DNA of 64,000 nt from an uncultured Alphaproteobacteria bacterium (GCA_963841705.1 CAWJDY010000043.1:41163-105162); one strand, 5' to 3'. Shown: positions 3,601 through 63,948, numbered from the stretch's first letter. Program-made: numbers and translations. Notes: generated by a model not told the origin, from the letters alone.

Positions 3601-3780
3601 TACTCCATACCTCCCCCTGAAAGGGGGAGGTCGACAGCATTTGCCCCGGCCTTGTGCCGGGGCAAATGCTGTCGGGTGGGGGTCCTGCCCTCGGCGGATC
3701 GCGGCCCGGAGTGACCCCCACCCGGCGACCCCCGACAAGTCGGGGTCGCCAACCTCCCCCTTTCAGGGGGAGGTGTCCAC
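3601..3780. repeat. nested-palindrome intergenic repeat, family R1 (copy 2)
   Basis: Same termini and the GACAGCATTTGCCCCGGCCTTGTGCCGGGGCAAATGCTGTC core as copy 1; different central filler. Confidence 0.85.
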
Positions 3781-9480: not shown

Positions 9481-9698
9481 GATACTCCATACCTCCCCCT
9501 GAAAGGGGGAGGTCGACAGCATTTGCCCCGGCCTTGCGCCGGGGCAAATGCTGTCGGGTGGGGGTCTGGCGCTGGGCGCGAGCATTTGCTGATCATCTCG
9601 GCTGCGGCTGGATCCCCACCCGGCGCTTCGCGCCGACCTCCCCCTTTCAGGGGGAGGTATTGCGGAGCTTGCTGCACCGCTGAGTCCATATGCGATAG
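9481..9698. repeat. nested-palindrome intergenic repeat, family R1 (copy 3)
   Basis: Same termini and core hairpin as 921-1140. Confidence 0.85.
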
Positions 9699-29390: not shown

Positions 29391-29672
29391 TCAGAAGTCG
29401 GTACTGATCAGATCGTAAGACCCTTTCCGTCCGCGTGCATAGACCTTTGCGGCGGCGGCGTAGATCAAGTCGCGATTCGCATCGAAGGCGCTGAGAAGTC
29501 CATCCTCATTGAGCCGCATGCCAGGCTGAACGCACCGCAAAGCATCTTCGGTTATGAAAAAAACAGCTTCCAATGCGCTGTCGTGGCCCCAAAACCGCAC
29601 GGCACGTCGGGTAGCGTCATAAAAACGGCTCTTATTGGGAAAGCTGAGCGTCATCGCCGGATGATTTTCCAA
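29391..29672 (-). CDS. DUF1488 family protein
   Basis: 93-aa ORF with the LSFPNKSRFYDATRRAVRFWGHDSALEAVFFITEDAL pattern typical of DUF1488. Confidence 0.7.
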   Translation of the reverse strand: MENHPAMTLSFPNKSRFYDATRRAVRFWGHDSALEAVFFITEDALRCVQPGMRLNEDGLLSAFDANRDLIYAAAAKVYARGRKGSYDLISTDF

Positions 29673-29681
29673 AGTTGCACC

Positions 29682-29864
29682 TTACTCCGAGCTCACCGGG
29701 AAGTCGCGAGAGGTGTTAACATCTGCGTCAGGTTCGGGCTCGGCACGCTCAGCTTTGCGCTGCGCAGCCTTTTCGTCCTTTCTTCGTTGCTTTTCCTCGC
29801 TGCGCGCGCGCGCTGCCCTCTGCCGTTCAGCCCGATCTCTACCGTAGTTTGGCTTGAATGCCAT
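29682..29864 (-). CDS. small basic hypothetical protein
   Basis: MAFKPNYGRDRAERQRAARARSEEKQRRKDEKAAQRKAERAEPEPD... (60 aa). The rest of ORF 29682..30197 is judged non-coding. Confidence 0.5.
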   Translation of the reverse strand: MAFKPNYGRDRAERQRAARARSEEKQRRKDEKAAQRKAERAEPEPDADVNTSRDFPVSSE

Positions 29865-29984
29865 CGGATCCTCTTTGTGGCCGGTTGATATCATCCGAGA
29901 CAATCCATAGATATATAATCGCTGGATGTATAGCCGCTCGAATCTGCCCTTTTGGCAGCGTTCCCGAAAAGGTGATGCTCTGTT

Positions 29985-30218
29985 ATGGCTCGGAAACCGG
30001 GAACGCGTGCCAGCGCTGAATTCGTGCTGTTCGATGTCTTTTATGAGGACGGCTCGCGGCGGTCCAATCGCAAGGTGCCAAGTGCGGTGCTGGCCGGCAT
30101 AGAAGGCGAGGCCGCCGCTGCCGTCTTCCTTACCGAGCAGGACCAGGCGATTGCAACGAAGTCCGGGCTCCCCGCAGTTGCCATAAAGGCCGTACACCGC
30201 TCCGGCAGAAAGGGTTAG
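29985..30218 (+). CDS. hypothetical protein
   Basis: 77-aa ORF, compositionally protein-like, tandem with the next ORF. Confidence 0.45.
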   Translation: MARKPGTRASAEFVLFDVFYEDGSRRSNRKVPSAVLAGIEGEAAAAVFLTEQDQAIATKSGLPAVAIKAVHRSGRKG

Positions 30219-30221
30219 CTC

Positions 30222-30467
30222 ATGCGCATCTACATATTCAAGTCAGAGTCGAGGAGGGAGCTGCGTGCATTCGCAGGCGATATAAGCGGGGACAAACTCC
30301 CGAAAAACCACGGTCCCTGGACGGCCACTGGCGTGATCGGAGCAGAGAAAGCACCTCCCCATAATCTCTCGCGTGAAGTGATCGAAGAAGCAATCCAAAC
30401 TGAGGGATTTCAGCTCTGGCGCCTGCAGAAAAAAGCAAAGAAGGAAAAGCTCCAGTCTGCGCCATAG
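30222..30467 (+). CDS. hypothetical protein
   Basis: 81-aa ORF MRIYIFKSESRRELRAFAGD..., 3 nt after the previous ORF, followed by hairpin GAGCTCC-GCGCTG-GGAGCCC. Confidence 0.45.
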   Translation: MRIYIFKSESRRELRAFAGDISGDKLPKNHGPWTATGVIGAEKAPPHNLSREVIEEAIQTEGFQLWRLQKKAKKEKLQSAP

Positions 30468-30514
30468 AGCTCCGCGCTGGGAGCCCGGCGCGTCTATGAG
30501 CTACACCCTCGAAT

Positions 30515-30588
30515 TGGTACTGACGTCAGGAGTTGAACCTGAATCACCCGGTTCACAGCCGAGTACTCTGCCGTTGAGCTACATCAGC
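30515..30588 (-). tRNA. tRNA-His(GUG), alphaproteobacterial type
   Basis: 74 nt. Acceptor GCUGAUG/CGUCAGU with G1-U72, A73, encoded CCA. Anticodon arm CUCGG-CUGUGAA-CCGGG. T arm UCAGG-UUCAACU-CCUGA. Base -1 is U (no G-1). Confidence 0.85.
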
Positions 30589-30589
30589 A

Positions 30590-30664
30590 TGGTGCCTATG
30601 GGTTGAATCGAACAACCGACACGCCGCATATGAAACGGCTGCTCCACCGCTGAGCTACACAGGC
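30590..30664 (-). tRNA. tRNA-Met or tRNA-Ile2 (CAU), elongator type
   Basis: 75 nt. Acceptor GCCUGUG/CAUAGGC, A73, CCA. D arm GCUC-AGCGGUG-GAGC. Anticodon arm GCCGU-UUCAUAU-GCGGC. T arm GGUUG-UUCGAUU-CAACC. No initiator features. Confidence 0.85.
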
Positions 30665-30675
30665 GTTTTCCGCAC

Positions 30676-30749
30676 TGGCTCCCCCTCATGGATTCGAACC
30701 ACGATCCTCGCATTCAAAGTGCGATATCCTGCCGTTAGACGAAGGGGGA
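30676..30749 (-). tRNA. tRNA-Gln(UUG)
   Basis: 74 nt. Acceptor UCCCCCU/AGGGGGA (U1-A72), G73, CCA. Anticodon arm UCGCA-CUUUGAA-UGCGA. T arm CGUGG-UUCGAAU-CCAUG. Confidence 0.85.
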
Positions 30750-30751
30750 AA

Positions 30752-30828
30752 TGGTCCGACCTGCGGGATTTGAACCCGCGTCACCTCGCTTGAAAGGCGA
30801 GCATCCTGGGCCACTAGACGAAGGTCGG
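30752..30828 (-). tRNA. tRNA-Glu(UUC)
   Basis: 77 nt. Acceptor CCGACCU/AGGUCGG, A73, CCA. Glu-type D region UCGUCUAGUGGCCCAGGA. Anticodon arm CUCGC-CUUUCAA-GCGAG. T arm GCGGG-UUCAAAU-CCCGC. Confidence 0.8.
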
Positions 30829-30830
30829 TT

Positions 30831-30905
30831 TGGTGCGGGCAGTGAGAATCGAACTCACGCGTCTTGGTTGGAAGCCAAGCACGCACCCCAGTACGCCATG
30901 CCCGC
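30831..30905 (-). tRNA. tRNA-Gly(UCC)
   Basis: 75 nt. Acceptor GCGGGCA/UGCCCGC, A73, CCA. Anticodon arm CUUGG-CUUCCAA-CCAAG. T arm GUGAG-UUCGAUU-CUCAC. Confidence 0.9.
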
Positions 30906-30912
30906 ATTGATT

Positions 30913-31000
30913 TGGCGGAGAGTTGAGAGCACGATTCTCACCGGCTAACCCGGCCGATCGCTTAGCAGGCGACGCTGGGCACCCGCCCAGTTAACTCTCC
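30913..31000 (-). tRNA. tRNA with Ser anticodon GCU, tRNA-Sec/allo-tRNA-like 8/4 fold
   Basis: 88 nt. 8-bp acceptor GGAGAGUU/AACUCUCC, G73, CCA, AA linker. D arm is a 6-bp stem CUGGGC/GCCCAG with 4-nt loop GGGU. Anticodon arm GUCGC-CUGCUAA-GCGAU. Variable hairpin CCGG-GUUAG-CCGG. 4-bp T stem GAGA/UCUC, loop AUCGUGC. Confidence 0.7.
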
Positions 31001-31004
31001 AGGT

Positions 31005-31079
31005 TGGAGACCGCGACACGATTCGAACGTGCATCCTCCGATGTAGGAAATCGGCGCTCATCCTTTGAGCTACGCGGCC
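31005..31079 (-). tRNA. tRNA-Arg(CCU)
   Basis: 75 nt. Acceptor GGCCGCG/CGCGGUC, U73, CCA. D arm GCUC-AAAGGAU-GAGC. Anticodon arm CCGAU-UUCCUAC-AUCGG. T arm GCACG-UUCGAAU-CGUGU. Confidence 0.85.
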
Positions 31080-31129
31080 ATGGAAGAAAAGCTGATCAGT
31101 CCCGGTCCGGGCTCTTCCAACCGATCTGT

Positions 31130-31579
31130 TTAACGGCGCTGCCTGCGCAAAGGGTACGAACTGGACTGGCCGTCTGGACTCGCAATGACCACCACATAAC
31201 CGTCGGGGTCGCGGAGCCACATTTCTCGATGTTGAGGCCCGGGGTTGACGTGAGGTTCTTCGATGATCTCGGTCCGCAATGCGCGCGCACGCTCCACGAC
31301 GGAGTCAAAGTCGTCAACCTGGAACCAAAGTAAGACCCCGTGTCCGGGAGGCGCGGCATTCGCGTCGACCAGGTTTGCGTGATTCTCCTCGTCCCAAGCG
31401 TGGAGTTGAAGAATCAAATGACCGGACGAGGACATCCGGTCGTACACGTCACGATGACTGTGTTCGGGGAGCGAGTCTGCCCCAAGCAGTTCCGCGTACC
31501 AGCGACTGCTCGCTCTTACATTGCGCACGGCTATGAGGGGTTGAGCCTGGACGCTTGATTTCTGCACAGCGGAGCTCAT
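31130..31579 (-). CDS. VOC (glyoxalase/bleomycin-resistance/dioxygenase) family protein
   Basis: 149-aa ORF with a GGAGGAC RBS 7 nt upstream. Embedded in the tRNA array on the same strand. Confidence 0.8.
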   Translation of the reverse strand: MSSAVQKSSVQAQPLIAVRNVRASSRWYAELLGADSLPEHSHRDVYDRMSSSGHLILQLHAWDEENHANLVDANAAPPGHGVLLWFQVDDFDSVVERARALRTEIIEEPHVNPGPQHREMWLRDPDGYVVVIASPDGQSSSYPLRRQRR

Positions 31580-31658
31580 ATGTCCTCCTGCTTTTGATAG
31601 TTCGCACTGAATCTCTGCGCATCAGATAATATGGCGCCGCCTTGACGCCGAGAATGAG

Positions 31659-31734
31659 TGGAGCTCCAGGCTGGATTCGAACCAGCATGTGCCGATTTAG
31701 AAGATCGGTGCCTCTCCGCTCGAGCCACTGGAGC
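31659..31734 (-). tRNA. tRNA-Arg(UCU)
   Basis: 76 nt. Acceptor GCUCCAG/CUGGAGC, U73, CCA. Anticodon arm CCGAU-CUUCUAA-AUCGG. T arm GCUGG-UUCGAAU-CCAGC. Confidence 0.85.
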
Positions 31735-31735
31735 T

Positions 31736-31809
31736 TGGAGACCAGAGCCGGAATTGAACCGGCGTGGGCGCTTTTGCAGAGCGCTCCCTAACCACTCGGG
31801 CATCTGGTC
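31736..31809 (-). tRNA. tRNA-Cys(GCA)
   Basis: 74 nt. Acceptor GACCAGA/UCUGGUC, U73, CCA. Anticodon arm GCGCU-CUGCAAA-AGCGC. T arm GCCGG-UUCAAUU-CCGGC. Confidence 0.9.
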
Positions 31810-31812
31810 GAT

Positions 31813-31887
31813 TGGCAGCCCGTCGCGGACTTGAACCGCGGCATCCGCTTTCAGAGAGCGGCGCTCTACCAGCTGAGCTAACGGGCA
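31813..31887 (-). tRNA. tRNA-Gln(CUG)
   Basis: 75 nt. Acceptor UGCCCGU/ACGGGCU with a U1-U72 mismatch, G73, CCA. D arm GCUC-AGCUGGUA-GAGC. Anticodon arm CCGCU-CUCUGAA-AGCGG. T arm CGCGG-UUCAAGU-CCGCG. Confidence 0.75.
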
Positions 31888-31889
31888 AT

Positions 31890-31968
31890 TGGTCAGGGCG
31901 GGTGGATTCGAACCACCGGTCTCCTGCTTCCAAGGCAGGCAGGGACGGCCAGGCTCCCCTACACCCTG
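31890..31968 (-). tRNA. tRNA-Pro(UGG)
   Basis: 79 nt. Acceptor CAGGGUG/CGCCCUG (C1-G72), A73, CCA. Anticodon arm CCUGC-CUUGGAA-GCAGG. T arm GGUGG-UUCGAAU-CCACC. Confidence 0.85.
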
Positions 31969-31974
31969 ATGAAT

Positions 31975-32051
31975 TGGCGCGCACGGGAGGACTCGAACCT
32001 CCACCGCCCGGATTCGTAGTCCGGCACATTGTCCAGTTGTGCTACGTGCGC
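31975..32051 (-). tRNA. tRNA-Arg(ACG), array copy
   Basis: 77 nt. Acceptor GCGCACG/CGUGCGC, G73, CCA. Anticodon arm CCGGA-CUACGAA-UCCGG. T arm GGAGG-UUCGAGU-CCUCC. Differs from the tRNA-Arg(ACG) at 41013-41089 at 18 of 77 positions by hand alignment. Confidence 0.9.
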
Positions 32052-32055
32052 AGAT

Positions 32056-32129
32056 TGGAGCGGCCGACGGGATTTGAACCCGCGTTTCCCGGCTTGAGGG
32101 GCTAGTGTGCTGCCTTAGACGACGACCGC
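32056..32129 (-). tRNA. tRNA-like, Glu(CUC)-type, imperfect anticodon arm (possible pseudogene)
   Basis: 74 nt. Acceptor GCGGUCG/CGGCCGC, U73, CCA. T arm GCGGG-UUCAAAU-CCCGU. D region UCGUCUAAGGCAG. Anticodon arm CUAGC-CCCUCAA-GCCGG has an A-C mismatch and C at position 33. Confidence 0.45.
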
Positions 32130-32133
32130 GAAT

Positions 32134-32211
32134 TGGCTCCGGCCGGTGGATTCGAACCACCCTCATTCTCGGTTAACAGCCGAGCGCGCTCACCTAGAGT
32201 GCTAGACCGGA
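32134..32211 (-). tRNA. tRNA-Asn(GUU)
   Basis: 78 nt. Acceptor UCCGGUC/GGCCGGA (U1-A72), G73, CCA. Anticodon arm CUCGG-CUGUUAA-CCGAG. T arm GGUGG-UUCGAAU-CCACC. Confidence 0.8.
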
Positions 32212-32216
32212 AGAAT

Positions 32217-32321
32217 TGGTGGAGACAGTCGGTAACGCGTCGCAACCCGGGCCCGCCCGGGTTGCGCATCATCGACCCGCGACGATCTTGCAAGGATCAT
32301 CTGCACCCTTGTGCTGTCCCC
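32217..32321 (-). ncRNA. tRNA-like unit of unknown specificity containing a REP-type hairpin (possible pseudogene)
   Basis: 105 nt, 1-5 nt from its neighbours. 8-bp acceptor-like helix GGGGACAG/CUGUCUCC plus ACCA. Hairpins CAAGG-11nt-CCUUG and AUCGUC-GCGGGUC-GAUGAU. An 11-bp hairpin CGCAACCCGGG/CCCGGGUUGCG resembles the R2 repeat. No recognisable T arm. Confidence 0.3.
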
Positions 32322-32322
32322 G

Positions 32323-32467
32323 TGGTGCCGAGGGTTGGTTTCGAGCCAACCTCCCCGCCGAAGTCGGATGTATCCGACTTCGGCCGACTTAACACTTGGC
32401 CGAACTCGAGTATACCCGAGTTCGGCTGTCTTCAGCGCGGTGCTTTCACCAGATGAGCTTCCTCGGC
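32323..32467 (-). tRNA. tRNA-Phe(GAA)-like gene expanded/disrupted by two long hairpins (possible pseudogene)
   Basis: 145 nt. Acceptor GCCGAGG/CCUCGGC, A73, CCA. D region AAGCUCAUCUGGUGAAAGC. CCGCG-CUGAAGA is not followed by a matching 3' stem. About 75 nt with perfect hairpins CCGAACUCG/CGAGUUCGG and GCCGAAGUCGGA/UCCGACUUCGGC. T arm GUUGG-CUCGAAA-CCAAC. Confidence 0.4.
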
Positions 32468-32503
32468 ATTTAACGTTGCAGACGGGTGTAAACACCCTTT
32501 TGT

Positions 32504-32577
32504 TGGTGCGGGCGTCGGTAATCGAAACCGAGTCTCCTGAGTGGCGCTCAGGTGCTAGGCCTTCCAGCTACGTCCGC
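32504..32577 (-). tRNA. tRNA-Gly(GCC)-like, unusual anticodon loop
   Basis: 74 nt. Acceptor GCGGACG/CGCCCGC (one A-C mismatch), A73, CCA. Anticodon arm CCUGA-GCGCCAC-UCAGG (C at 33; a G32-C38 pair could reduce the loop to 5 nt). T arm UCGGU-UUCGAUU-ACCGA. Confidence 0.55.
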
Positions 32578-32601
32578 CATCAGGGCGTTTGCGCACGCTA
32601 T

Positions 32602-32692
32602 TGGTGGGAAGTGGACGGAATCGAACCTCTTGCCCGCAGGGACCGCGTTTACAGCGCGGCGACGGCACCAGCCTGTCCTTATGGCACTTCCC
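32602..32692 (-). tRNA. tRNA-Tyr(GUA), class II, non-standard D arm
   Basis: 91 nt. Acceptor GGGAAGU/ACUUCCC (an 8th G-C pair is possible), A73, CCA. Anticodon arm CCGCG-CUGUAAA-CGCGG. Variable hairpin CCC-UGC-GGG. D position occupied by GAC(A)GGC-UGGU-GCCGUC. T stem GAGG/CC(G)UC, loop UUCGAUU. Confidence 0.7.
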
Positions 32693-32697
32693 GTGTC

Positions 32698-32838
32698 TGG
32701 TTGCGGGTCCCGGGGTTGCACCGCAAGTCGGCTTTTGCCGACTTGCGGCACTTCATTTAGTGCCGGAAGTCGGGCAAGCCCGGCTTCCGGGCGATCGCGG
32801 CTTATGAGACCGCGTGGGTTCCTAACCGACCTACCCGC
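32698..32838 (-). tRNA. tRNA-Met(CAU)-like 5' half followed by three REP-type hairpins (probable pseudogene)
   Basis: 141 nt. The 5' half is good (acceptor strand GCGGGU, D arm GGU-CGGUUAGGA-ACC, anticodon arm CGCGGU-CUCAUAA-GCCGCG). Then come hairpins CCGGAAGCCGGGC/GCCCGACUUCCGG, GGCACU-AAAUGA-AGUGCC and GCAAGUCGGC-AAAA-GCCGACUUGC. No T arm; 3' end ACCCGC-AACCA. Confidence 0.35.
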
Positions 32839-32844
32839 TAAAAA

Positions 32845-32897
32845 TGGTGCGAAGGCTTTTACTCCCTCGCTTGCTGCCGGTACTTCCGCGGTCAGCA
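32845..32897 (-). ncRNA. tRNA fragment / minihelix with ACCA end
   Basis: 53 nt. Hairpin UGCUG(A)CCG..CGGCAGCA, then minihelix GCGAGGG-AGUAAAAG-CCUUCGC followed by ACCA. No cloverleaf. Confidence 0.25.
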
Positions 32898-32901
32898 GAA
32901 A

Positions 32902-32988
32902 TGGCGGATGCCTGACGTGTCGATCGCCACACCATGTGGTGCCATCCCGCTTCGAACGGGTGCCAGAGGCCGCTCTGGTTAAGCATCC
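32902..32988 (-). tRNA. tRNA with Ser anticodon CGA, tRNA-Sec/allo-tRNA-like 8/4 fold
   Basis: 87 nt. 8-bp acceptor GGAUGCUU/AGGCAUCC, G73, CCA, AA linker. D arm is a 6-bp stem CCAGAG/CUCUGG with 4-nt loop CGGC. Anticodon arm CCCG-UUCGAAG-CGGG. Variable hairpin GCACC-ACAU-GGUGU. 4-bp T stem GGCG/CGUC, loop AUCGACA. Confidence 0.7.
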
Positions 32989-32991
32989 ATG

Positions 32992-33096
32992 TGGAGGAAG
33001 GCCGCGGTCTCGATCCGCAGTGGCGAACCACCCGATCGCTTTCCAAGCAATGCCGATCGCCCGACCCCCGGACTTGATCCGGGGGTTTGACCTTCC
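32992..33096 (-). tRNA. tRNA with Ser anticodon GGA, 8/4-like fold with oversized D hairpin
   Basis: 105 nt. 8-bp acceptor GGAAGGUC/GGCCUUCC, U73, CCA, AA linker. 9-bp hairpin ACCCCCGGA-UCAAG-UCCGGGGGU. 11 extra nt. Anticodon arm AUUGC-UUGGAAA-GCGAU. Variable hairpin GUGG-UUCG-CCAC. T stem GCGG/CCGC, loop AUCGAGA. Confidence 0.5.
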
Positions 33097-33100
33097 GTAT

Positions 33101-33188
33101 TGGCGGATGGCGGAGCACTCGAAGCCCATGCCTTGCGGCACCATCGGTGTTCAAAGCCGCGCCGGCGAGCCTTGCCGGTTCACCATCC
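33101..33188 (-). tRNA. tRNA with probable Ser anticodon UGA, 8/4-like fold
   Basis: 88 nt. 8-bp acceptor GGAUGGUG/CGCCAUCC, G73, CCA, AA linker. D arm CCGGC-AAGGCUC-GCCGG. Weak anticodon arm GCGGC-UUUGAAC-ACCGA (3 central bp). Variable hairpin GUGCC-GCAA-GGCAU. 4-bp T stem GGGC/GCUC, loop UUCGAGU. Confidence 0.55.
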
Positions 33189-33192
33189 CTAT

Positions 33193-33267
33193 TGGCCTAC
33201 CGGATAGGAGTCCAACCTATGTCCTCGACGTTCGGAGGGTCGCGCTCATCCACTGAGCTACCGGTAG
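33193..33267 (-). tRNA. tRNA-Arg(CCG)
   Basis: 75 nt. Acceptor CUACCGG/CCGGUAG, G73, CCA. D arm GCUC-AGUGGAU-GAGC. Anticodon arm CGACC-CUCCGAA-CGUCG (C-C at 31-39). T arm AUAGG-UUGGACU-CCUAU (G instead of C56). Confidence 0.65.
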
Positions 33268-33276
33268 TTTGTTTGT

Positions 33277-33366
33277 TGGTCGGCGCCCCGGGTTACGATC
33301 CCGACCGTCTACAGCAGTCCGCTGCCCCGGTTTATAAGACCGAGCCGCACGCCAGTGCTGACGCCG
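33277..33366 (-). tRNA. class-II-shaped tRNA with Ile anticodon UAU
   Basis: 90 nt. Acceptor CGGCGUC/GGCGCCG, A73, CCA. D arm GCAC-UGGC-GUGC (4-nt loop). 6-bp anticodon stem CUCGGU/ACCGGG, loop CUUAUAA. Long variable region with hairpin CAGC-GGACU-GCUG. T arm UCGGG-AUCGUAA-CCCGG. Confidence 0.55.
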
Positions 33367-33406
33367 TGCAGAGAATGCGCGCGATATTCTCCTCATCGTC
33401 TGTCCT

Positions 33407-33483
33407 TGGTCGGAGTGGCTGGATTTGAACTAGCGACCTCTTCGTTCCGAACGAAGAGCGCTTCCAGGCTGCGCTACACTCCG
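33407..33483 (-). tRNA. tRNA-Pro(CGG)
   Basis: 77 nt. Acceptor CGGAGUG/CACUCCG (C1-G72), A73, CCA. D arm GCGC-AGCCUGGAA-GCGC. Anticodon arm CUUCG-UUCGGAA-CGAAG. T arm GCUAG-UUCAAAU-CCAGC (one A-C mismatch). Confidence 0.8.
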
Positions 33484-33487
33484 GAAA

Positions 33488-33562
33488 TGGCGCGCTGTAC
33501 GGGACTCGAACCCGTCTCGCTCGATAGACAGTCGAGCTGCCTCACCCGATGCATAACAGCGC
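33488..33562 (-). tRNA. tRNA-Asp(GUC)
   Basis: 75 nt. Acceptor GCGCUGU/ACAGCGC, G73, CCA. Anticodon arm CUCGA-CUGUCUA-UCGAG. T arm ACGGG-UUCGAGU-CCCGU. Confidence 0.85.
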
Positions 33563-33601
33563 AACGCAATCGTGAAGGCCGACTGCCGCGATCGACGAAA
33601 A

Positions 33602-33677
33602 TGGTGTGCCTGGCTCGTTTCGAACGAGCACTGAACGCGCTCTCAACGCGTTCCCTCTGCCATTGGGGTACAGGCAC
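33602..33677 (-). tRNA. class-I tRNA with Leu anticodon GAG (identity uncertain)
   Basis: 76 nt. Acceptor GUGCCUG/CAGGCAC, A73, CCA. D arm CCCC-AAUGGCAGA-GGG. Anticodon arm ACGCG-UUGAGAG-CGCGU. Only a 5-nt variable loop. T arm GCUCG-UUCGAAA-CGAGC. Confidence 0.75.
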
Positions 33678-33678
33678 A

Positions 33679-33765
33679 TGGAGGACCAGGCAGGAGTCGA
33701 ACCTGCGATGGGCATAGCCAGCGGATTAAGAGTCCGCCCCGTTCGGCCGCTACGGTGACTGGTCC
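33679..33765 (-). tRNA. tRNA-Lys(CUU) with enlarged variable region
   Basis: 87 nt. Acceptor GGACCAG/CUGGUCC, U73, CCA. Anticodon arm GCGGA-CUCUUAA-UCCGC. 14-nt variable region with mini-hairpin GGC-UAU-GCC. T arm GCAGG-UUCGACU-CCUGC. Confidence 0.65.
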
Positions 33766-33767
33766 CA

Positions 33768-33850
33768 TGGAGGACGCGAGTGGTTACGATCCACAGGCCG
33801 ACGGGTTAAAAGTCCGCTCCCTCTCCATTCGGGTTTAAGGCTTCGCGTCC
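33768..33850 (-). tRNA. tRNA-Lys(UUU)-like, oversized D region
   Basis: 83 nt. Acceptor GGACGCG/CGCGUCC, U73, CCA. Anticodon arm GCGGA-CUUUUAA-CCCGU (A-C at 31-39). T stem GUGG/CCAC, loop AUCGUAA. Confidence 0.55.
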
Positions 33851-33854
33851 GGAT

Positions 33855-33931
33855 TGGTGCAAGCGGGAGGTTACTCCCTCCTCCTACCACGCGGTTATCG
33901 GCCGCGGCCCTCGCTTCTCGGACTCGCTTGC
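33855..33931 (-). tRNA. tRNA-like with Ile anticodon GAU, non-canonical T and anticodon loops
   Basis: 77 nt. Acceptor GCAAGCG/CGCUUGC, A73, CCA. Anticodon arm CGCGG-CCGAUAA-CCGCG (C at 33). T stem GGAGG/CCUCC with a 9-nt loop AGGGAGUAA lacking UUC. Confidence 0.4.
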
Positions 33932-33948
33932 ATGTTTGGTCTTTTGAT

Positions 33949-34024
33949 TGGTGCTCCCTGACGGACTCGAACCGCCGAATGTCCGGGTGTAAACCAGATG
34001 CCTTTGCCGCTTGGCGAAGGGAGC
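33949..34024 (-). tRNA. tRNA-Val(UAC)
   Basis: 76 nt. Acceptor GCUCCCU/AGGGAGC, A73, CCA. Anticodon arm UCUGG-UUUACAC-CCGGA. T arm GGCGG-UUCGAGU-CCGUC. Confidence 0.9.
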
Positions 34025-34030
34025 GTTATC

Positions 34031-34110
34031 TGGTGCCCGTGATAGGATTCGAACCTACACTGTCACTTCTTTTGAGGAAGTGGCCGCTACCGGGATTGGG
34101 CTACACGGGC
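34031..34110 (-). tRNA. class-I tRNA with Leu anticodon CAA (identity uncertain)
   Basis: 80 nt. Acceptor GCCCGUG/CACGGGC, A73, CCA. D region UAGCCCAAUCCCGGUAGCGGC. Anticodon arm ACUUC-CUCAAAA-GAAGU. 5-nt variable loop. T arm GUAGG-UUCGAAU-CCUAU. Confidence 0.75.
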
Positions 34111-34112
34111 AT

Positions 34113-34190
34113 TGGTGCGCCAGGCGAGATTCGAACTCGCACTGCTCTCGTTCTGAGCGAGATGCCTCCTGCCAATTGGGCTACCGGCGC
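34113..34190 (-). tRNA. class-I tRNA with Leu anticodon CAG (identity uncertain)
   Basis: 78 nt. Acceptor GCGCCGG/CUGGCGC, A73, CCA. D region UAGCCCAAUUGGCAGGAGGC. Anticodon arm UCUCG-CUCAGAA-CGAGA. 5-nt variable loop. T arm GCGAG-UUCGAAU-CUCGC. Confidence 0.75.
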
Positions 34191-34279
34191 ATGCTGCTCT
34201 CTCGGATGAGCAGAGCATGATCCCGAAAAGTTGCAAGCTTTTGGACACGATCATGCGACCGAACAAGGTCAGAGCGAAT
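34191..34279 (-). other. structured spacer with anticodon-loop-like hairpin (not a cloverleaf)
   Basis: 89 nt between two tRNAs. Long hairpin GCAUGAUC..GAUCAUGC capped by AAAAG-CUUGCAA-CUUUU (UGC in a 7-nt loop with U33/A37). Second hairpin AUGCU(CU)GCUC-AUCCGAGA-GAGCAGCAU. No acceptor stem or CCA. Confidence 0.2.
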
Positions 34280-34353
34280 TGGAGCCCTCACCTGGACTTG
34301 AACCAGGCTCCCCGCCTTACAAGAACGGAGCATCACCGCAATGCTTTGAGGGC
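34280..34353 (-). tRNA. tRNA-Thr(UGU)
   Basis: 74 nt. Acceptor GCCCUCA/UGAGGGC, U73, CCA. D arm GCAU-UGCGGUG-AUGC. Anticodon arm CCGUU-CUUGUAA-GGCGG. T arm CCUGG-UUCAAGU-CCAGG. Confidence 0.9.
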
Positions 34354-34374
34354 GCAATACCTTCAGGATCATGT

Positions 34375-34446
34375 TGCTGGCAGCAGGGATCAAACCTCCC
34401 GACGCCACATATGAGAGTGGCGCTCTATCGCCTTAACCCTGCCAGC
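34375..34446 (-). tRNA. degenerate tRNA-Met(CAU)-like unit, first in array (possible pseudogene)
   Basis: 72 nt. Acceptor GCUGGCA/UGCCAGC, A73, no encoded CCA. Stem GCCAC/GUGGC with 8-nt loop UCUCAUAU. T arm GGAGG-UUUGAUC-CCUGC with a G-G mismatch. Poor D arm. Confidence 0.35.
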
Positions 34447-34505
34447 GCTGACATGTTCTCGCCGAAACCAGAGCCGTTGGTCGGTCCTACGGGTCGAGAG
34501 GCGCT

Positions 34506-34533
34506 CTTATGCGTAGGGAGCGCCGGCCTGCAA
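34506..34533 (-). promoter_or_regulatory. candidate sigma-70-type promoter for the tRNA array
   Basis: Minus strand TTGCAG (34533-34528), 16-nt spacer, CATAAG (34511-34506), about 60 nt upstream of the first array unit. Motif match only. Confidence 0.2.
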
Positions 34534-34541
34534 CGATTCGA

Positions 34542-34733
34542 TCATTCCGAGCCGAAAATCCGCTCGAAATCAGCGTCTGCGCGCGCAACGATCTCGCGCG
34601 CGATATCGGGATTGGCGATGGCGGTCTTGCCGAAGACGAACGAGCGCCGGCACGCGCGCCGCTGCTCCGGCGACGCAGTGGTGTCGCGGGTGCTCTCGAT
34701 CAGCTCGTCTTTGGTCTTGGTGTCGCGGACCAC
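34542..34733 (-). CDS. small hypothetical protein
   Basis: 63-aa ORF MVRDTKTKDELIESTRDTTASPEQRR...IAREIVARADADFERIFGSE. Protein-like composition; no family recognised. Confidence 0.3.
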   Translation of the reverse strand: MVRDTKTKDELIESTRDTTASPEQRRACRRSFVFGKTAIANPDIAREIVARADADFERIFGSE

Positions 34734-35067
34734 TTGGTCCTCCTGCCTGTTGGCGGAGGACTTGGGTCTCCGCCGGTTACGCTAGGGCTAAGCTTTGCCC
34801 TTGTTCGCCTGTTATCTGATGCCTGGGCATAGCCCCGCACGAACGCCGCCGATCGCTCGGCCGATCAAACGGCCGTGCGGCGGCGGTTGAGAGCGCGGTA
34901 TGTGGTCTTAACGACAACATCTCTTCCTCAGGTCCTCAGGGCGACGCAACTCGTCCTTGAACAGCGCGCTCATATAGTGAGCAGCTGCAAAAAGTCAAGT
35001 GCACGCGAGCAACATGCTCTCTCTTTCTCTAACAGGCGGTTATTCTACGCAAAGCGGGCAGAGCAAC

Positions 35068-36070
35068 TCAACGGGCTGCCTTCGCCTTCTCATAAAAGCT
35101 GAGGTCGATGTATTTCATCGGATCCTTCAGCTCCTTTTTAGGCTCGCCATACTGGCTGCGCAACGCGAGCACGGTGCGTACGCCCTTCGACGTCGATCGA
35201 AGCGTCGCGTGCGAAGCCGTCCTTCGGGTCCATCAAGATGCCATAGGACTTGTTGGCAAGGTCCTCGGCCATGTTGGGCAGGTTCTTGCGCAGGATCGCG
35301 ATCGCCTCGGCCTTGTTGGCAGGGTCGTAGAGCCAACCAACGGCTGCTCGATAGCCGCGGATGAAACCCGCGACCTGCAACTCGTTCTCCTTCGCCCATT
35401 GCCGCCGCGAACAGGCAACGACGCCCTGGTAATGCCCGAGCACGTCGACCGCATTGGCGAGCCGGTTGAAACCGCGTGCCTCCGCGGCTGCCTCGAACGG
35501 CGAAACGAGCAGGGTTGCGGCATGCTTCTTGGCGAGGAGCGCCTCGAACCGCTGTAGCACGCCGCCTGCTTTCACATACGTGACATCGTCGGGCTTGAGC
35601 CCGCCTTTCTCGAGCAGCTTCTCGAGGACAAAGGCGTAGCCGGTCGTGCGCGCATCGACCGATACCTCCTTGCCCTTGAGGTCGGCATAGGTCTTCACCT
35701 CCGGCAGGCTGACCAGCCGCAGGAAACCGTTGTCAGAACCCATAACCGCGACGAGGTCCGGCGTCTGGGTGGTCGATGCCTCGCCCTGACCTTCCATGTA
35801 GGCGATGATATTATCAATTGCGGTCATCGCGATGTCGAACTTGCCGTCGATCAAATTCGTGAGCTGGAACACCGAGTTCGGCGTGGGTGTGATCCTGACT
35901 GCCACGTTACCGCGCGCGAACAAGCCTTTCTCCTGCGCGACCCAGATCGGCCAGTTGAAACCGCCAGGGAAGACGATGACCTCTATAGGCTTGGAGGCTT
36001 GTGCCGTCGCCGGGCTGATGAGCCCAAGCGACACAAGGATGGATGTAAGTGCCGTGAGCGGGCGACCCAT
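35068..36070 (-). pseudogene. ABC transporter substrate-binding protein (NMT1/THI5-like, sulfonate/nitrate/taurine type) with apparent 1-nt frameshift near the 3' end
   Basis: The ORF 35138..36070 has a signal peptide and an SBP body. After ...DASIDVEG the family-typical C-terminus VRTVLALRSQYGEPKKELKDPMKYIDLSFYEKAKAAR continues in another frame to the stop at 35068-35070. The switch is at a GGG/CCC run at 35182-35184. Confidence 0.75.
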
Positions 36071-41012: not shown

Positions 41013-41089
41013 TGGCGCGCCCGAAAGGATTCGAACCTCCGACCCCCAAATTCGTAGTCTGGTGCTCTATCCAGCTGAGCTACGGGCGC
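41013..41089 (-). tRNA. tRNA-Arg(ACG), conventional chromosomal copy
   Basis: 77 nt. Acceptor GCGCCCG/CGGGCGC, G73, CCA. D arm GCUC-AGCUGGAUA-GAGC. Anticodon arm CCAGA-CUACGAA-UUUGG. T arm GGAGG-UUCGAAU-CCUUU. Confidence 0.92.
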
Positions 41090-59689: not shown

Positions 59690-59838
59690 CCTCGCCCTGC
59701 AAAGGGGAGGTCGCCCCCATTTGCCCCGGCCTTGCGCCGGGGCAAATGCCGTCGGGTAGGGGTTGCGACCATCGGCGTTGGTGTTTGACCCCTACCCGGC
59801 TCGCGCTGCTCGCCGAGCTCCGCGTTTCAGGCGGAGGC
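59690..59838. repeat. degenerate copy of repeat family R1
   Basis: CCTCGCCCTGCAAAGGGGAGG..CATTTGCCCCGGCCTTGCGCCGGGGCAAATGCCGTCGGGTAGGGG..CCCCTACCC..CTCCGCGTTTCAGGCGGAGG. Confidence 0.7.
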
Positions 59839-61862: not shown

Positions 61863-62819
61863 ATGACACCTTGGCGCGCCTTCGTGCCCAGCTCTGCCTG
61901 GCGCACCGCTGTGCTCGCGGCTTTTACGCTGATCTTGGCGGTAAGCTCAGCGCCTGCACAGGACAAAGGGAGGCTGAAAGCCGACCCGCTGCCGCCGCTC
62001 GCTCACCCGGAAGATCCGAGCACCCCCGCCAAGGAGCTCTTCGGCCGCAAGACTGCACCCCTTCCCACGGCAGCCCACACCATCGGCTTCTACTCCCACG
62101 GCTGTATTGCTGGTGCCAAGGCACTCCCGATCAACGGCAAGACGTGGCAGGTGATGCGCCTCTCCCGCAACCGCAACTGGGGGCACCCGAACCTCGTGAA
62201 ATTTCTTGAGCGCCTGGCCAGCCAGGCGCCAAAGACGGGCTGGCGCGGCCTTCTGGTCGGCGACATGTCGCAGCCGCGCGGCGGGCCAATGCGCACGGGG
62301 CACGCGAGTCATCAGGTAGGACTCGACGCCGACATCTGGCTCACCCCGATGCCCGCGCGCGAACTGACCCGCACCGAGCGCGAAGATATGTCGGCGACCA
62401 TGGTGGTCGCGGAAGACCGCTTGGACGTGGATCCCAATGTATGGACCCCAGCGCATGTTGCACTGATCAAAGCCGCCGCGCAGGATCCGGAGGTCATTCG
62501 CATCTTCGTCAATCCCGCGATCAAGCGCGCATTGTGCCGGGACGCCGGCCATGACCGCGCCTGGCTGAGCAAGGTTCGGCCGTGGTGGGGTCACGATTAT
62601 CACTTCCACGTGCGGATTCGCTGTCCCGCAGATAGTCCCGAGTGTCAGCCGCAGGAGCCGGTAGCCGCAGACGATGGCTGCAACGGCCAGGACCTCGACC
62701 ATTGGTTCACGGACGAGATCCTACACCCGCACCCCTCGCCCATTCCGCCGAAGACCAAGCCTCCGCTGCGCATGGCCGACCTGCCCGCCGCCTGCCGTCA
62801 GGTGCTGCTAGCACCTTAG
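61863..62819 (+). CDS. mepA: penicillin-insensitive murein endopeptidase
   Basis: Start at MTPWRAF with a signal peptide. MepA motifs GHASHQVGLDADIW and WWGHDYHFHVRIRCP. Confidence 0.9.
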   Translation: MTPWRAFVPSSAWRTAVLAAFTLILAVSSAPAQDKGRLKADPLPPLAHPEDPSTPAKELFGRKTAPLPTAAHTIGFYSHGCIAGAKALPINGKTWQVMRLSRNRNWGHPNLVKFLERLASQAPKTGWRGLLVGDMSQPRGGPMRTGHASHQVGLDADIWLTPMPARELTRTEREDMSATMVVAEDRLDVDPNVWTPAHVALIKAAAQDPEVIRIFVNPAIKRALCRDAGHDRAWLSKVRPWWGHDYHFHVRIRCPADSPECQPQEPVAADDGCNGQDLDHWFTDEILHPHPSPIPPKTKPPLRMADLPAACRQVLLAP

Positions 62820-62961: not shown

Positions 62962-63948
62962 CTACGCGAGCAACGATTGTCGCAGCACGTCGGGATTGAC
63001 CACGTTGATCGGTTTTCCCGCGGCGTAGGCCGTGATCTGATCGAAGATATCGCTGAACTGCACCTCGTATTCCTCGCGCGAGACGTAGCCGAGGTGCGGC
63101 GTGCACACCACGTTATCCATTTGGAGCAGGGGATGCTTGGTGTCGAGCATCGGCTCGTCTTCGTAGACATCGACCGCAGCGAGCCCCGGCCGTCCCGCGC
63201 GCAGCGCATCGACGAGCGCGCCGCGCTCGATCAGCGGCGCGCGGCTGGTATTGACGATAAGGGCGGTCGGTTTCATGCGCGTGAGATCGGCGGCAGTTAC
63301 GATCCCGCGGGTGGCATCGACGAGGCGCATGTGCAGCGAGATGACGTCGCATTCCTGGAAGAACGCCTCCTTGCCCGGTGGGGTCGCGTAGCCGTCCGCT
63401 CGCGCGCGGGCGAGTGAAGCTTCGCGTGCCCAAACGCACACGTTCATCCCGAACGCCCTGCCATAGCCGGCCACTACGCTGCCGATACGGCCGTAGCCAT
63501 AGACGCCTAACGTCTTGCCTCGCAGCGTGCTGCCGACCCCGATCTGCCAGTGGCCGGCTTTTAACGATGCCATCTGCTGCGGAATCCGGCGCATGGCTGC
63601 AAGGATGAGGCCCCAGGTGAGCTCGGCCGTGGCATAGGACGGCGTGCCCATGTGCAGGCTCGACGACACCACGATGCCTTGGCGCGTGCACGCGTCGACA
63701 TCTATGTGCGGATAGACGCTGCGCTGGCTGATGAGCTTGAGCGCGGGCAGGCGCTCGATCAGCGGGGCGCGGATCGCCGTGCGCTCGCGGATCAGCACGA
63801 GCGCCTGCGTGTCGCGCAATCGCTCCGCCAGGGCGTCGGTGTCCTGGACGTGATCGTTCCAGATCGTGATTTGGTGCCCGGTCAGTTTCTTGAAGCAGGC
63901 CAGCGTGCGAACGGTGTCGTGATAGTCGTCGAGAATGGTGATGTTCAT
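62962..63948 (-). CDS. D-isomer-specific 2-hydroxyacid dehydrogenase family protein
   Basis: 328-aa ORF. NAD fold [13 protein letters not shown], catalytic region SLHMRL..TRG.., [10 protein letters not shown]. Confidence 0.88.

Follow-up and report, generated by a model that had tools for sequence, protein, structure and literature searches.

The window, that is, the whole 64,000-nucleotide stretch of DNA from an uncultured Alphaproteobacteria bacterium, carries a dense array of tRNA-like genes, four of which bear serine anticodons and an uncommon distribution of base pairs between the acceptor and T stems (8 + 4, hereafter 8/4, instead of the ordinary 7/5). The features relevant here are:

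30515..34446, minus strand: L-array with some 36 tRNA-like units, each with an encoded CCA, among which the four Ser genes are embedded
30913..31000, minus strand: tRNA-Ser(GCU), 8/4 type, 88 nt including CCA, anticodon at 30966-30964, G73
31130-31579: glyoxalase-family ORF (Pfam) interrupting the L-array
32902..32988, minus strand: tRNA-Ser(CGA), 8/4 type, 87 nt, anticodon at 32954-32952, G73
32992..33096, minus strand: tRNA-Ser(GGA), 8/4 type, disrupted, 105 nt, anticodon at 33044-33042, U73
33064..33086, minus strand: REP-like palindromic hairpin within the GGA unit (D arm); its 9-bp inverted repeat is perfect and reads ACCCCCGGA-CTTGA-TCCGGGGGT on the plus strand
33101..33188, minus strand: tRNA-Ser(UGA), 8/4 type, 88 nt, anticodon at 33153-33151, G73

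Clusters are assigned to L-arrays, or tRNA array units, if at least 20 tRNA genes follow one another on one strand with a density of at least 2 per kb; here 23 tRNAs called by ARAGORN, the four Ser genes and about nine irregular units are packed into 3.9 kb of the minus strand. The likeness to described L-arrays (2021, PMC8421152) and tRNA array units (Tran et al., 2016, PMC4758250) extends to dozens of same-strand tRNA genes lying a few bases apart, apparently supernumerary isodecoders, signs of horizontal transfer and an HNH endonuclease gene near related copies, whereas the present lineage differs by its 8/4 Ser genes and several other irregular tRNAs; in the actinobacterial L-array that was examined (Nonomuraea plasmid) the Ser genes are canonical. 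The order of tRNAs is syntenic with an array from an Alphaproteobacteria MAG (locus L002), the array copy of tRNA-Arg(ACG) shares just 78% identity with the stand-alone host gene (41013-41089), and GC content amounts to 59.6% in the array versus approximately 63% in its flanks. Related arrays adjoin genes for HNH endonuclease, recombinase and transposase in differing contexts, and an HNH endonuclease ORF found inside related arrays fits the description of L-arrays, which were reported to spread horizontally (PMC8421152). Neither an integrase nor an insertion boundary was identified within the window, and the search for a sigma-70-type promoter upstream gave nothing convincing, its sole match being weak and ~600 nt away. 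Signs of decay are evident: REP-like hairpins reside in the Ser-GGA (D arm), Ala (T loop), Phe and CAU units, Ile-GAU has no normal T loop, and Trp is represented by a truncated unit, canonical versions of the damaged genes being retained in L002. The locus is thus an L-array, probably supernumerary and decayed in part, which a soil alphaproteobacterium carries in its chromosome.

The four Ser units occupy the positions given in the initial annotation, all on the minus strand and each ending with encoded CCA, and the features described there were confirmed for every one of them: eight acceptor base pairs, AA as the linker, a long variable hairpin and no more than four pairs in the T stem. The acceptor stems are GGAGAGUU/AACUCUCC, GGAUGCUU/AGGCAUCC, GGAAGGUC/GGCCUUCC, and GGAUGGUG/CGCCAUCC, the T loop comprises 7 nt in all cases, and the variable hairpins are closed by loops GUUAG, ACAU, UUCG, and GCAA in GCU, CGA, GGA, and UGA units, respectively. 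The discriminator is G73 in three of the four, as had been noted, and U73 in the GGA unit. The decoding set for serine is complete, with UGA, GGA, and CGA anticodons serving UCN codons and GCU serving AGY codons; the anticodon UCA is absent, in agreement with the initial reading.

In the GCU unit the D stem CUGGGC/GCCCAG carries the loop GGGU, the anticodon stem has 6 bp with a bulge, and the T arm reads GAGA-AUCGUGC-UCUC; it scores 88.6 bits with model R1, and an identical sequence was found in loci L014 and L025. The CGA unit (94.6 bits with model R1) combines the D stem CCAGAG/CUCUGG and loop CGGC with the T arm GGCG-AUCGACA-CGUC; in its L002 orthologue both the acceptor stem (C8-G in place of U8-A) and the D stem have changed in a compensatory way. 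For both units the minimum free energy (MFE) structure given by RNAfold is exactly an 8/4 cloverleaf with the proposed D arm of 6 bp and 4 nt. The UGA unit (90.6 bits with model R1, T arm GGGC-UUCGAGU-GCUC) is identical in 12 contigs and has G-C as its 8:66 pair. The D arm of 5 bp and 7 nt attributed to it is indeed seen (CCGGC/GCCGG) and is accompanied by an A.C mismatch, but this irregular form is not shared by the L002 orthologue, where the arm has the regular 6 bp and 4 nt. A C31.A39 mismatch is also present, and together with the weakened D stem it counts against the explanation favored below. Compensatory changes were likewise found in the orthologues of the Ser units from L002 and L015, and all differences of the GCU, CGA, and UGA units from more distant copies are of this kind. 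These three genes are intact in the window.

The GGA unit has suffered an insertion. Its acceptor, anticodon arm, variable arm, and T arm are all intact, while the initially proposed D arm of 9 bp and 5 nt turned out to be an inserted REP-like hairpin (33064-33086), which took the place of the 5′ strand of the D stem, so that the ancestral 6-bp stem CCGAUC/GAUCGG, retained in many related arrays, is lost. Hairpins similar to the insert, with the form GCCCCGGC-CTTGC-GCCGGGGC, lie in the host DNA at 961-983, 3637-3669, 9519-9551, and 59718-59748; according to the alignment of orthologues, the insert is shared with L013 alone. The unit scores only 48.6 bits with model R1 versus 75-96 bits for its 87-nt orthologues, and its tRNA-like fold (-45.5 kcal/mol) lies above the MFE (-54.5); intact orthologues fold into the cloverleaf. 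The GGA gene is probably impaired. There is also a small chance that members with REP hairpins, such as Ser-GGA, are not dead but represent “extra-arm” tRNAs that occur naturally and are tolerated.

Standard tools pass over the whole set. With default parameters ARAGORN reports 24 tRNAs in the window and misses all four Ser units, returning no Ser at all, which corroborates the remark that no conventional tRNA-Ser resides in the array; a canonical Ser-GCU gene present in the related array L002 (7372-7459) is absent from the window. At -ps70 all four units are called tRNA-Ser, the GCU unit being found only at this setting. Searches with Rfam models gave no match of the four units to RF00005, including at E<=10 on a 301-nt stretch; RF01852 likewise matched none of them, whether 6 kb were searched at E<=1 or 301 nt at E<=10.

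Relatives are nevertheless numerous. The covariance model built from six Ser units (three from the window and three from L002) matched another 176 sequences in related loci, and its matches in viral loci number 184; the signal is far above chance. The 8/4 Ser class occurs in at least 120 IMG/VR stretches, and phages of Caulobacter and Brevundimonas carry it too, the anticodons being those of serine throughout; 143 of 143 viral relatives possess GCU, GGA, CGA, or UGA in roughly equal numbers, and G73 is found in 135 of them. The initial view that a full Ser set on this fold within a tRNA array would be unusual is not supported, given these 143 distinct viral sequences and the literature, where (8/4) tRNA-Ser were described as a subset of (8/4) allo-tRNAs that occurs in bacteriophages, in proteobacteria, and in bacteria of the rumen, and also within the tRNA clusters of alphaproteobacterial phages (Mukai et al., 2017, Nucleic Acids Res, PMC5389517). 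The units considered here share with that class a 12-bp branch split 8/4, Ser anticodons, a long D stem with a tetraloop usually having a pyrimidine after two G’s, a longer anticodon stem, a long variable arm, G73 or U73, and the occurrence in tRNA gene clusters of phages and proteobacteria. The D arms of the GCU (6 bp and GGGU) and CGA (6 bp and CGGC) units, both with pyrimidine 20, conform to it, the exceptions being UGA (5 bp and 7 nt) and GGA with its destroyed D stem. Unlike the published cases, all four isoacceptors are assembled here within one array of some 36 units on the chromosome of a soil alphaproteobacterium, and GGA is disrupted by a REP-like insertion; the conserved single-base bulge in the anticodon stem may be a further difference.

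The choice between the two splits of the acceptor/T branch is ambiguous for the GCU and CGA units taken alone, since A66 can pair with either U8 or U49, and the 8/4 shape might therefore be an artefact of reading an ordinary class II tRNA-Ser. Such tRNAs (7/5, RF00005) have in common with the units found here Ser anticodons, a long variable arm, G73, and encoded CCA, and the labels given by ARAGORN at -ps70 are in line with this, but they differ in having a 7-bp acceptor with U8, a large D loop closed by a stem of 3 bp, and T and anticodon stems of 5 bp, whereas a D arm of 6 bp and 4 nt is observed. The 7/5 fold is impossible in the UGA unit because U49 faces C66. Two independent sets were used for covariation, namely 91 distinct homologues from soil and MAG arrays and 143 distinct sequences from viral contigs. 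The eighth acceptor pair (8:66) is always Watson-Crick, with three pair types in the soil set (UA 47, CG 25, GC 19) and four in the viral one (GC 51, AU 39, UA 37, CG 15), never being unpaired in either. In the soil set 97.5% of cells are paired, with a covariation score of 0.740 versus 0.199 in shuffles, and the score for the viral set is 0.85. By contrast, the extra T-stem pair required by 7/5 fails to form in 21 of the 91 soil sequences and reveals neither double changes nor covariation, position 49 being a constant U while position 66 is A, G, C, or U; in the viral set this pair is mostly U.C or U.U. In the soil set all six D-stem pairs and the variable hairpins of 4-5 bp covary as well. 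The base before the anticodon arm, initially described as a single C, is paired (CG 86, UA 3, GC 2; n = 91). The anticodon stem comprises 6 bp, and one nucleotide bulges out of its 3′ strand; its outer pairs are formed in 91/91 and 77/91 sequences, and the unbulged 5-bp register fails in 54/91. With model R1, canonical tRNA-Ser genes of the actinobacterial L-array reach no more than 22-28 bits, and the lack of any RF00005 match speaks in the same direction. The allo-tRNA-like branch proposed at the outset is thus backed by sequence covariation, which settles the matter for 8/4 over 7/5 and effectively refutes the ordinary cloverleaf, leaving it a very slight probability. Slighter still is the chance that the units are relatives of tRNA-Sec used for recoding, or are charged with an amino acid other than serine. 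Bacterial tRNA-Sec (RF01852) indeed has an 8-bp acceptor, a 2-nt linker, a D arm of 6 bp and 4 nt, a 6-bp anticodon stem, a long variable arm, and recognition by SerRS, and two other long units of the array match RF01852 weakly (29.5 and 25.8 bits). However, tRNA-Sec is distinguished by a 13-bp branch (8/5), the UCA anticodon, and dependence on SelA/SelB, while the branch here has 12 bp, with a 4-bp T stem whose fifth pair is unsupported, and solely Ser anticodons occur in the window and in the 143 viral relatives. No SelA, SelB, or SelD was found among genes called within ~10 kb either side of the glyoxalase gene inside the array. The Sec kinship suggested initially did not survive: it is ruled out by the 12-bp branch, the absence of UCA, and the lack of RF01852 matches on the four units.

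More weight, though still clearly the minor part, belongs to the view that the array is what remains of an element acquired horizontally, now silent and decaying, and that its Ser units, irrespective of their fold, have ceased to serve translation in this host. The damage to Ser-GGA, Ala, Phe, CAU, Ile-GAU, and Trp implies that the whole array may be silent here; the counterparts still canonical in L002, the unsuccessful promoter search, and the reported poor expression of L-arrays under standard conditions (PMC8421152) are consistent with this. Against it, many other contigs contain copies that match the intact GCU, CGA, and UGA units exactly or almost exactly, the divergence from distant copies consists of compensatory changes, and the Anabaena L-array is induced by translational stress and useful for survival (PMC8421152). 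The latter observation is also compatible with an adaptive role of the 8/4 shape, namely evasion of tRNA-targeting nucleases of the host or of competitors, or of further defences directed at tRNA, by tRNA-Ser encoded in phages or arrays, with the array acting as an anti-defence or stress back-up set, which we regard as rather improbable. The concentration of the class in phage contigs and mobile arrays points to it, as does PMC12803027, where tRNA arrays are discussed as putative anti-defence systems; but other tRNAs of the same arrays are mostly 7/5, so the 8/4 shape is Ser-specific rather than a general evasion strategy, and it may be a neutral lineage trait tolerated by SerRS. In its boldest form, the geometry would have been selected to keep a full Ser set unseen by host tRNA-directed nucleases and regulators, the window array being a domesticated, partly eroding back-up or anti-defence set; this is a conjecture of marginally lower probability again.

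The four units most probably belong to the (8/4) allo-tRNA class and represent genuine serine tRNA genes borne by an L-array. Their 12-bp acceptor/T helix is divided 8 + 4 rather than 7 + 5, and the genes ride in a long, probably supernumerary array of a kind reported to spread horizontally, the same tRNA class being carried by phages. The SerRS-type identity features assumed initially, that is, a long variable arm, G73 or U73, and Ser anticodons, are present in the genes, and by analogy with published work on the class the transcripts are likely to be SerRS substrates; 8/4 allo-tRNAs in E. coli are processed, charged by SerRS, and insert serine (PMC5389517). Since the acceptor and T stems still stack coaxially over 12 bp, as opposed to 13 bp in tRNA-Sec, EF-Tu and the ribosome would presumably treat them like any other elongator tRNA. 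The 8/4 serine tRNA shape is already described and common in phage tRNA clusters, and the four units are its further members, of a shape that escapes standard tRNA finders.

A dense array of tRNA genes occupies the minus strand of the window from about 34446 to 30515. With its default parameters ARAGORN called 23 tRNAs within the array together with one stand-alone tRNA-Arg (41013-41089) and no tRNA-Ser in the window, while under relaxed settings (-ps70) four units were called as tRNA-Ser tga, gga, cga and gct. When 29500-35500 was scanned permissively with Rfam, the canonical members were confirmed and neither a tRNA nor a tRNA-Sec match fell on the four units; a 301-nt Rfam scan at E<=10 gave none either, and comparison with RF01852, proposed in the initial annotation, was thus negative. 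The units are separated from their neighbors by 3-7 nt, and each ends in an encoded CCA:

Serine units of the array
30913-31000, minus strand, GCU unit, 88 nt
32902-32988, minus strand, CGA unit, 87 nt
32992-33096, minus strand, GGA unit, 105 nt
33101-33188, minus strand, UGA unit, 88 nt

Re-reading of the sequence proved the initial description accurate in most structural details: all four units possess 8-bp acceptor stems (GGAGAGUU/AACUCUCC, GGAUGCUU/AGGCAUCC, GGAAGGUC/GGCCUUCC and GGAUGGUG/CGCCAUCC), an AA linker, stable variable hairpins (loops GUUAG, ACAU, UUCG and GCAA) and a T arm with 4-bp stem and 7-nt loop, and three carry G73, the GGA unit having U73. For the GCU and CGA units the minimum free energy (MFE) structure given by RNAfold is the cloverleaf with 8-bp acceptor and 4-bp T stems (8/4), a 6-bp D stem and a 4-nt D loop. 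Since A66 of these two units may pair with either U8 or U49, one sequence alone does not decide between 8/4 and the standard 7/5 split. The UGA unit is unable to form 7/5, because its U49 faces C66.

Comparative evidence was obtained using the translation of a spurious ORF over the Ser block (32548-33144, minus strand) as a "protein" handle. It led to L002, a MAG locus from an uncultured member of the Alphaproteobacteria whose array is syntenic, and matched 39 miscalled "proteins" in metagenomes, for eight of which the contigs were fetched; a scan with a 9-sequence protein alignment from the same handle added 53 soil-metagenome loci, and the Ser-block translation found no match in a viral scan. 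A covariance model built from three Ser units of the window and three of L002 (R1) gave 176 matches in the related loci, the best 150 of which, from soil and MAG arrays, comprise 91 distinct sequences. In alignments fitted to the model and gap-free in the relevant columns, 97.5% of cells are paired under the 8/4 structure, and its covariation score is 0.740, compared with 0.199 when shuffled and no more than 0.103 when the register is slid. The eighth acceptor pair is UA in 47, CG in 25 and GC in 19 sequences, never unpaired and with 44 double changes, whereas the fifth T-stem pair required by 7/5 (UA 45, UG 25) is unpaired in 21 of 91 and shows no double change, position 49 being a constant U; the 7/5 fold is rejected on these grounds. 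The same set corrects the reading of a "single C" preceding the anticodon arm: this base is paired (CG 86, UA 3, GC 2), the next pair is formed across one bulged base in 77 of 91 sequences, and a 5-bp register without the bulge breaks in 54, so that the anticodon stem has 6 bp with a bulge. The 8/4, allo-tRNA-like interpretation of the units is therefore right, with covariation in support of the fold.

The anatomy is exactly that by which allo-tRNAs were defined (Mukai et al., 2017; PMC5389517): their 12-bp branch is split 8/4 or 9/3, the D stem is long as in tRNA-Sec and capped by a tetraloop, the variable arm is long, the anticodon stem is lengthened and the discriminator is G73 or U73. Identity with tRNA-Sec itself is rejected, as the branch comprises 12 bp versus 13, no unit has the UCA anticodon and RF01852 gives no match; the Pfam families of the genes called within some 10 kb to the left and right of the glyoxalase gene inside the array include neither SerRS nor SelA/B/D. 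A full Ser set on this fold had been deemed unusual; the class has, however, been described before, and it turns out to be frequent in the tRNA clusters of phages and arrays. (8/4) tRNA-Ser are known from bacteriophages, proteobacteria and rumen Clostridia, including tRNA clusters of alphaproteobacterial phages (PMC5389517). Scanning IMG/VR with a structural DNA pattern matched at least 120 stretches, and the first 80 of these loci yielded 184 R1 matches. All 143 distinct viral sequences bear Ser anticodons (GCU 44, GGA 35, CGA 33, UGA 31) and 135 have G73; their eighth pair is formed throughout, with each of the four Watson-Crick types represented. Among cultured phages, three 8/4 tRNA-Ser genes, unannotated in the RefSeq record, were found in Caulobacter phage CcrColossus (NC_019406.1), and one unannotated gene in Brevundimonas phage Bajun, R1 scoring them at 52-80 bits:

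Phage 8/4 tRNA-Ser genes
62633-62722 of NC_019406.1 (L191 5001-5090), CcrColossus
62727-62816 of NC_019406.1 (L191 5095-5184), CcrColossus
62980-63067 of NC_019406.1 (L191 5348-5435), CcrColossus
L192 5001-5087, Bajun

No 8/4 Ser gene occurs in the examined 16-kb tRNA region of the Sinorhizobium jumbo phage Phosso, and an actinobacterial L-array (long tRNA gene array) on a Nonomuraea plasmid has canonical Ser genes only; therefore the fold is not universal to arrays.

The GGA unit deviates from the common plan by an insertion. Its "9 bp + 5 nt D arm" turned out to be an inserted hairpin, ACCCCCGGA-UCAAG-UCCGGGGGU, standing in place of the 5′ strand of the D stem in the window and one other contig (L013). 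The gene has the regular 8/4 form of 87 nt in many loci, L002-L005, L012 and L014 among them, where the D stem is CCGAUC/GAUCGG and the MFE structure the cloverleaf. For the 105-nt unit the tRNA-like fold lies 9 kcal/mol above an MFE structure that buries the anticodon. The window copy is thus damaged and probably impaired; U73 is also present in most GGA orthologues. The inserted hairpin resembles a palindromic repeat family of the host (961-983, 3637-3669, 9519-9551 and 59718-59748). HIP1-like GCGATCG motifs were considered as an explanation for the insertion and rejected: CCGAUC/GAUCGG was already the D stem of the ancestral gene, and the inserted sequence is a REP-like hairpin distinct from it.

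Erosion of the array copy in the window extends beyond this gene. REP-like hairpins interrupt its Ala, Phe and CAU units, the canonical versions of which are kept in L002. Perfect palindromic hairpins of 9-14 bp, whose families also occur as REP-like repeats between genes of the host, are found in the T loop of Ala-UGC, in Phe-GAA (two), in the long CAU unit (two or three) and in the D arm of Ser-GGA; AAGTCGG-N-CCGACTT occurs 3 times versus 0.01 expected. The tRNA-Trp following tRNA-His is reduced to its 5′ half (L002 has tRNA-Trp), an Ile-GAU-like unit is devoid of a UUC-type T loop (canonical in L002), and the anticodon loop of a Gly-GCC-like unit is unusual in having C33.

Repeats and decay in the array
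32241-32266, 32357-32384, 32721-32748 and 33064-33086, array-internal hairpins
2056-2081, 2090-2115, 961-983, 3637-3669, 9519-9551 and 59718-59748, host repeats used for comparison
30440-30514, 33855-33931 and 32504-32577, decay sites

The contig (contig_32647 of ENA metagenome assembly ERZ25039605) places the array among chromosomal neighbors, namely RpoD, a DEAD-box helicase, S21, a cold-shock protein and a radical-SAM enzyme. The GC content of the array is about 3.5% below that of the flanks, and its Arg-ACG copy shares only 78% identity with the stand-alone host gene. Related arrays occupy unrelated contexts; some lie near recombinase or transposase genes, and often the Arg-CCG and Ser block is directly preceded by an ORF for an HNH endonuclease. 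Compared by BLAST with plasmids and phages, the complete array showed only scattered single-tRNA similarities and no related array. The window array and its relatives resemble the L-arrays of Santamaria-Gomez et al. (2021; PMC8421152), which are reported to be long, supernumerary, horizontally disseminated and associated with homing endonucleases, and whose expression is usually poor, being inducible in Anabaena by translational stress. Between Arg-UCU and Arg-CCU the window has an ORF of the glyoxalase/bleomycin-resistance family (31130-31579, minus strand, 149 aa) with a good AGGAGG ribosome-binding site; in L002, L003 and L012-L014 there is instead an HNH endonuclease ORF upstream of Arg-CCG. 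A segment 3′ of Ser-CGA (32842-32900), comprising hairpin GCGAGGGAGUAAAAGCCUUCGC, ACCA and a U run, scans as a candidate intrinsic-terminator-like site and is conserved in related arrays, where it is seen as peptide "LLTAEVPAASEGV" in spurious ORFs.

Several other tRNAs of the array are irregular. The tRNA-His (30515-30588; L002 7795-7869) has A73, G1.U72 and no G-1, as in the tRNA-His of Alphaproteobacteria to which Mukai et al. refer (PMC5389517), in agreement with L002 taxonomy; an 8/4 fold, as in some alphaproteobacterial phages, is rejected in favor of 7/5 judging from the L002 orthologue. Leu GAG, CAA and CAG (33602-33677, 34031-34110 and 34113-34190) measure only 76-80 nt, their variable loop is short, and they so have class I shape; Leu-CAG and Leu-CAA of L002 measure 85 nt, the Leu genes of Phosso 77-79 nt. 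The variable region of tRNA-Lys(CUU) (33679-33765, 87 nt) contains a short additional hairpin. The adjacent UUU unit (33768-33850, 83 nt, U73) combines an 8-bp acceptor stem GGACGCGA/UCGCGUCC with a 4-bp T stem GUGG/CCAC and loop AUCGUAA (R1, 28.5 bits), and is so an 8/4-like non-Ser tRNA; Lys genes at matching positions in L002 are 88 and 91 nt long. A 90-nt unit with anticodon UAU (33277-33366) carries A73 and T loop AUCGUAA; its D stem has 4 bp and a tetraloop, its anticodon stem 6 bp, and its variable region forms a hairpin. The unit matches tRNA-Sec weakly (25.8 bits); it is reminiscent of Mukai et al.'s abundant allo-tRNA(UAU) group and could alternatively be an AUA-decoding tRNA-Ile. 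On soil metagenome contig WNEZ01039004.1 (L058 2121-2207), one unit combines the 8/4 body of the Ser genes with anticodon GCA and U73, so that this scaffold may here have switched from Ser to cysteine identity.

Allo-tRNAs of the 8/4 type have been shown to undergo processing and serylation and to function on the E. coli ribosome (PMC5389517). Judging from such published behavior of the class, SerRS would read the long variable arm and G73 regardless of the 8/4 split, and EF-Tu and the ribosome would treat the units as ordinary elongators, because the coaxial stack still comprises 12 bp; the UGA, GGA and CGA units would then decode UCN and the GCU unit AGY.

These data reveal neither a new kind of molecule nor a selenocysteine link. 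Default ARAGORN and Rfam models miss the whole 8/4 tRNA-Ser class, and therefore tRNA complements of phages and arrays may look falsely incomplete. Surveys have put tRNA-Ser last among the isotypes of arrays (frequency 0.36; PMC8421152) and described an under-representation of tRNA-Ser(GGA) in them (PMC4758250); failure of detection may contribute to these results. The practical value thus consists in a warning for annotation and in strong covariation support for the 8/4 fold with its bulged 6-bp anticodon stem, while the documented range of (8/4) tRNA-Ser is extended to a widespread L-array family of soil alphaproteobacteria.
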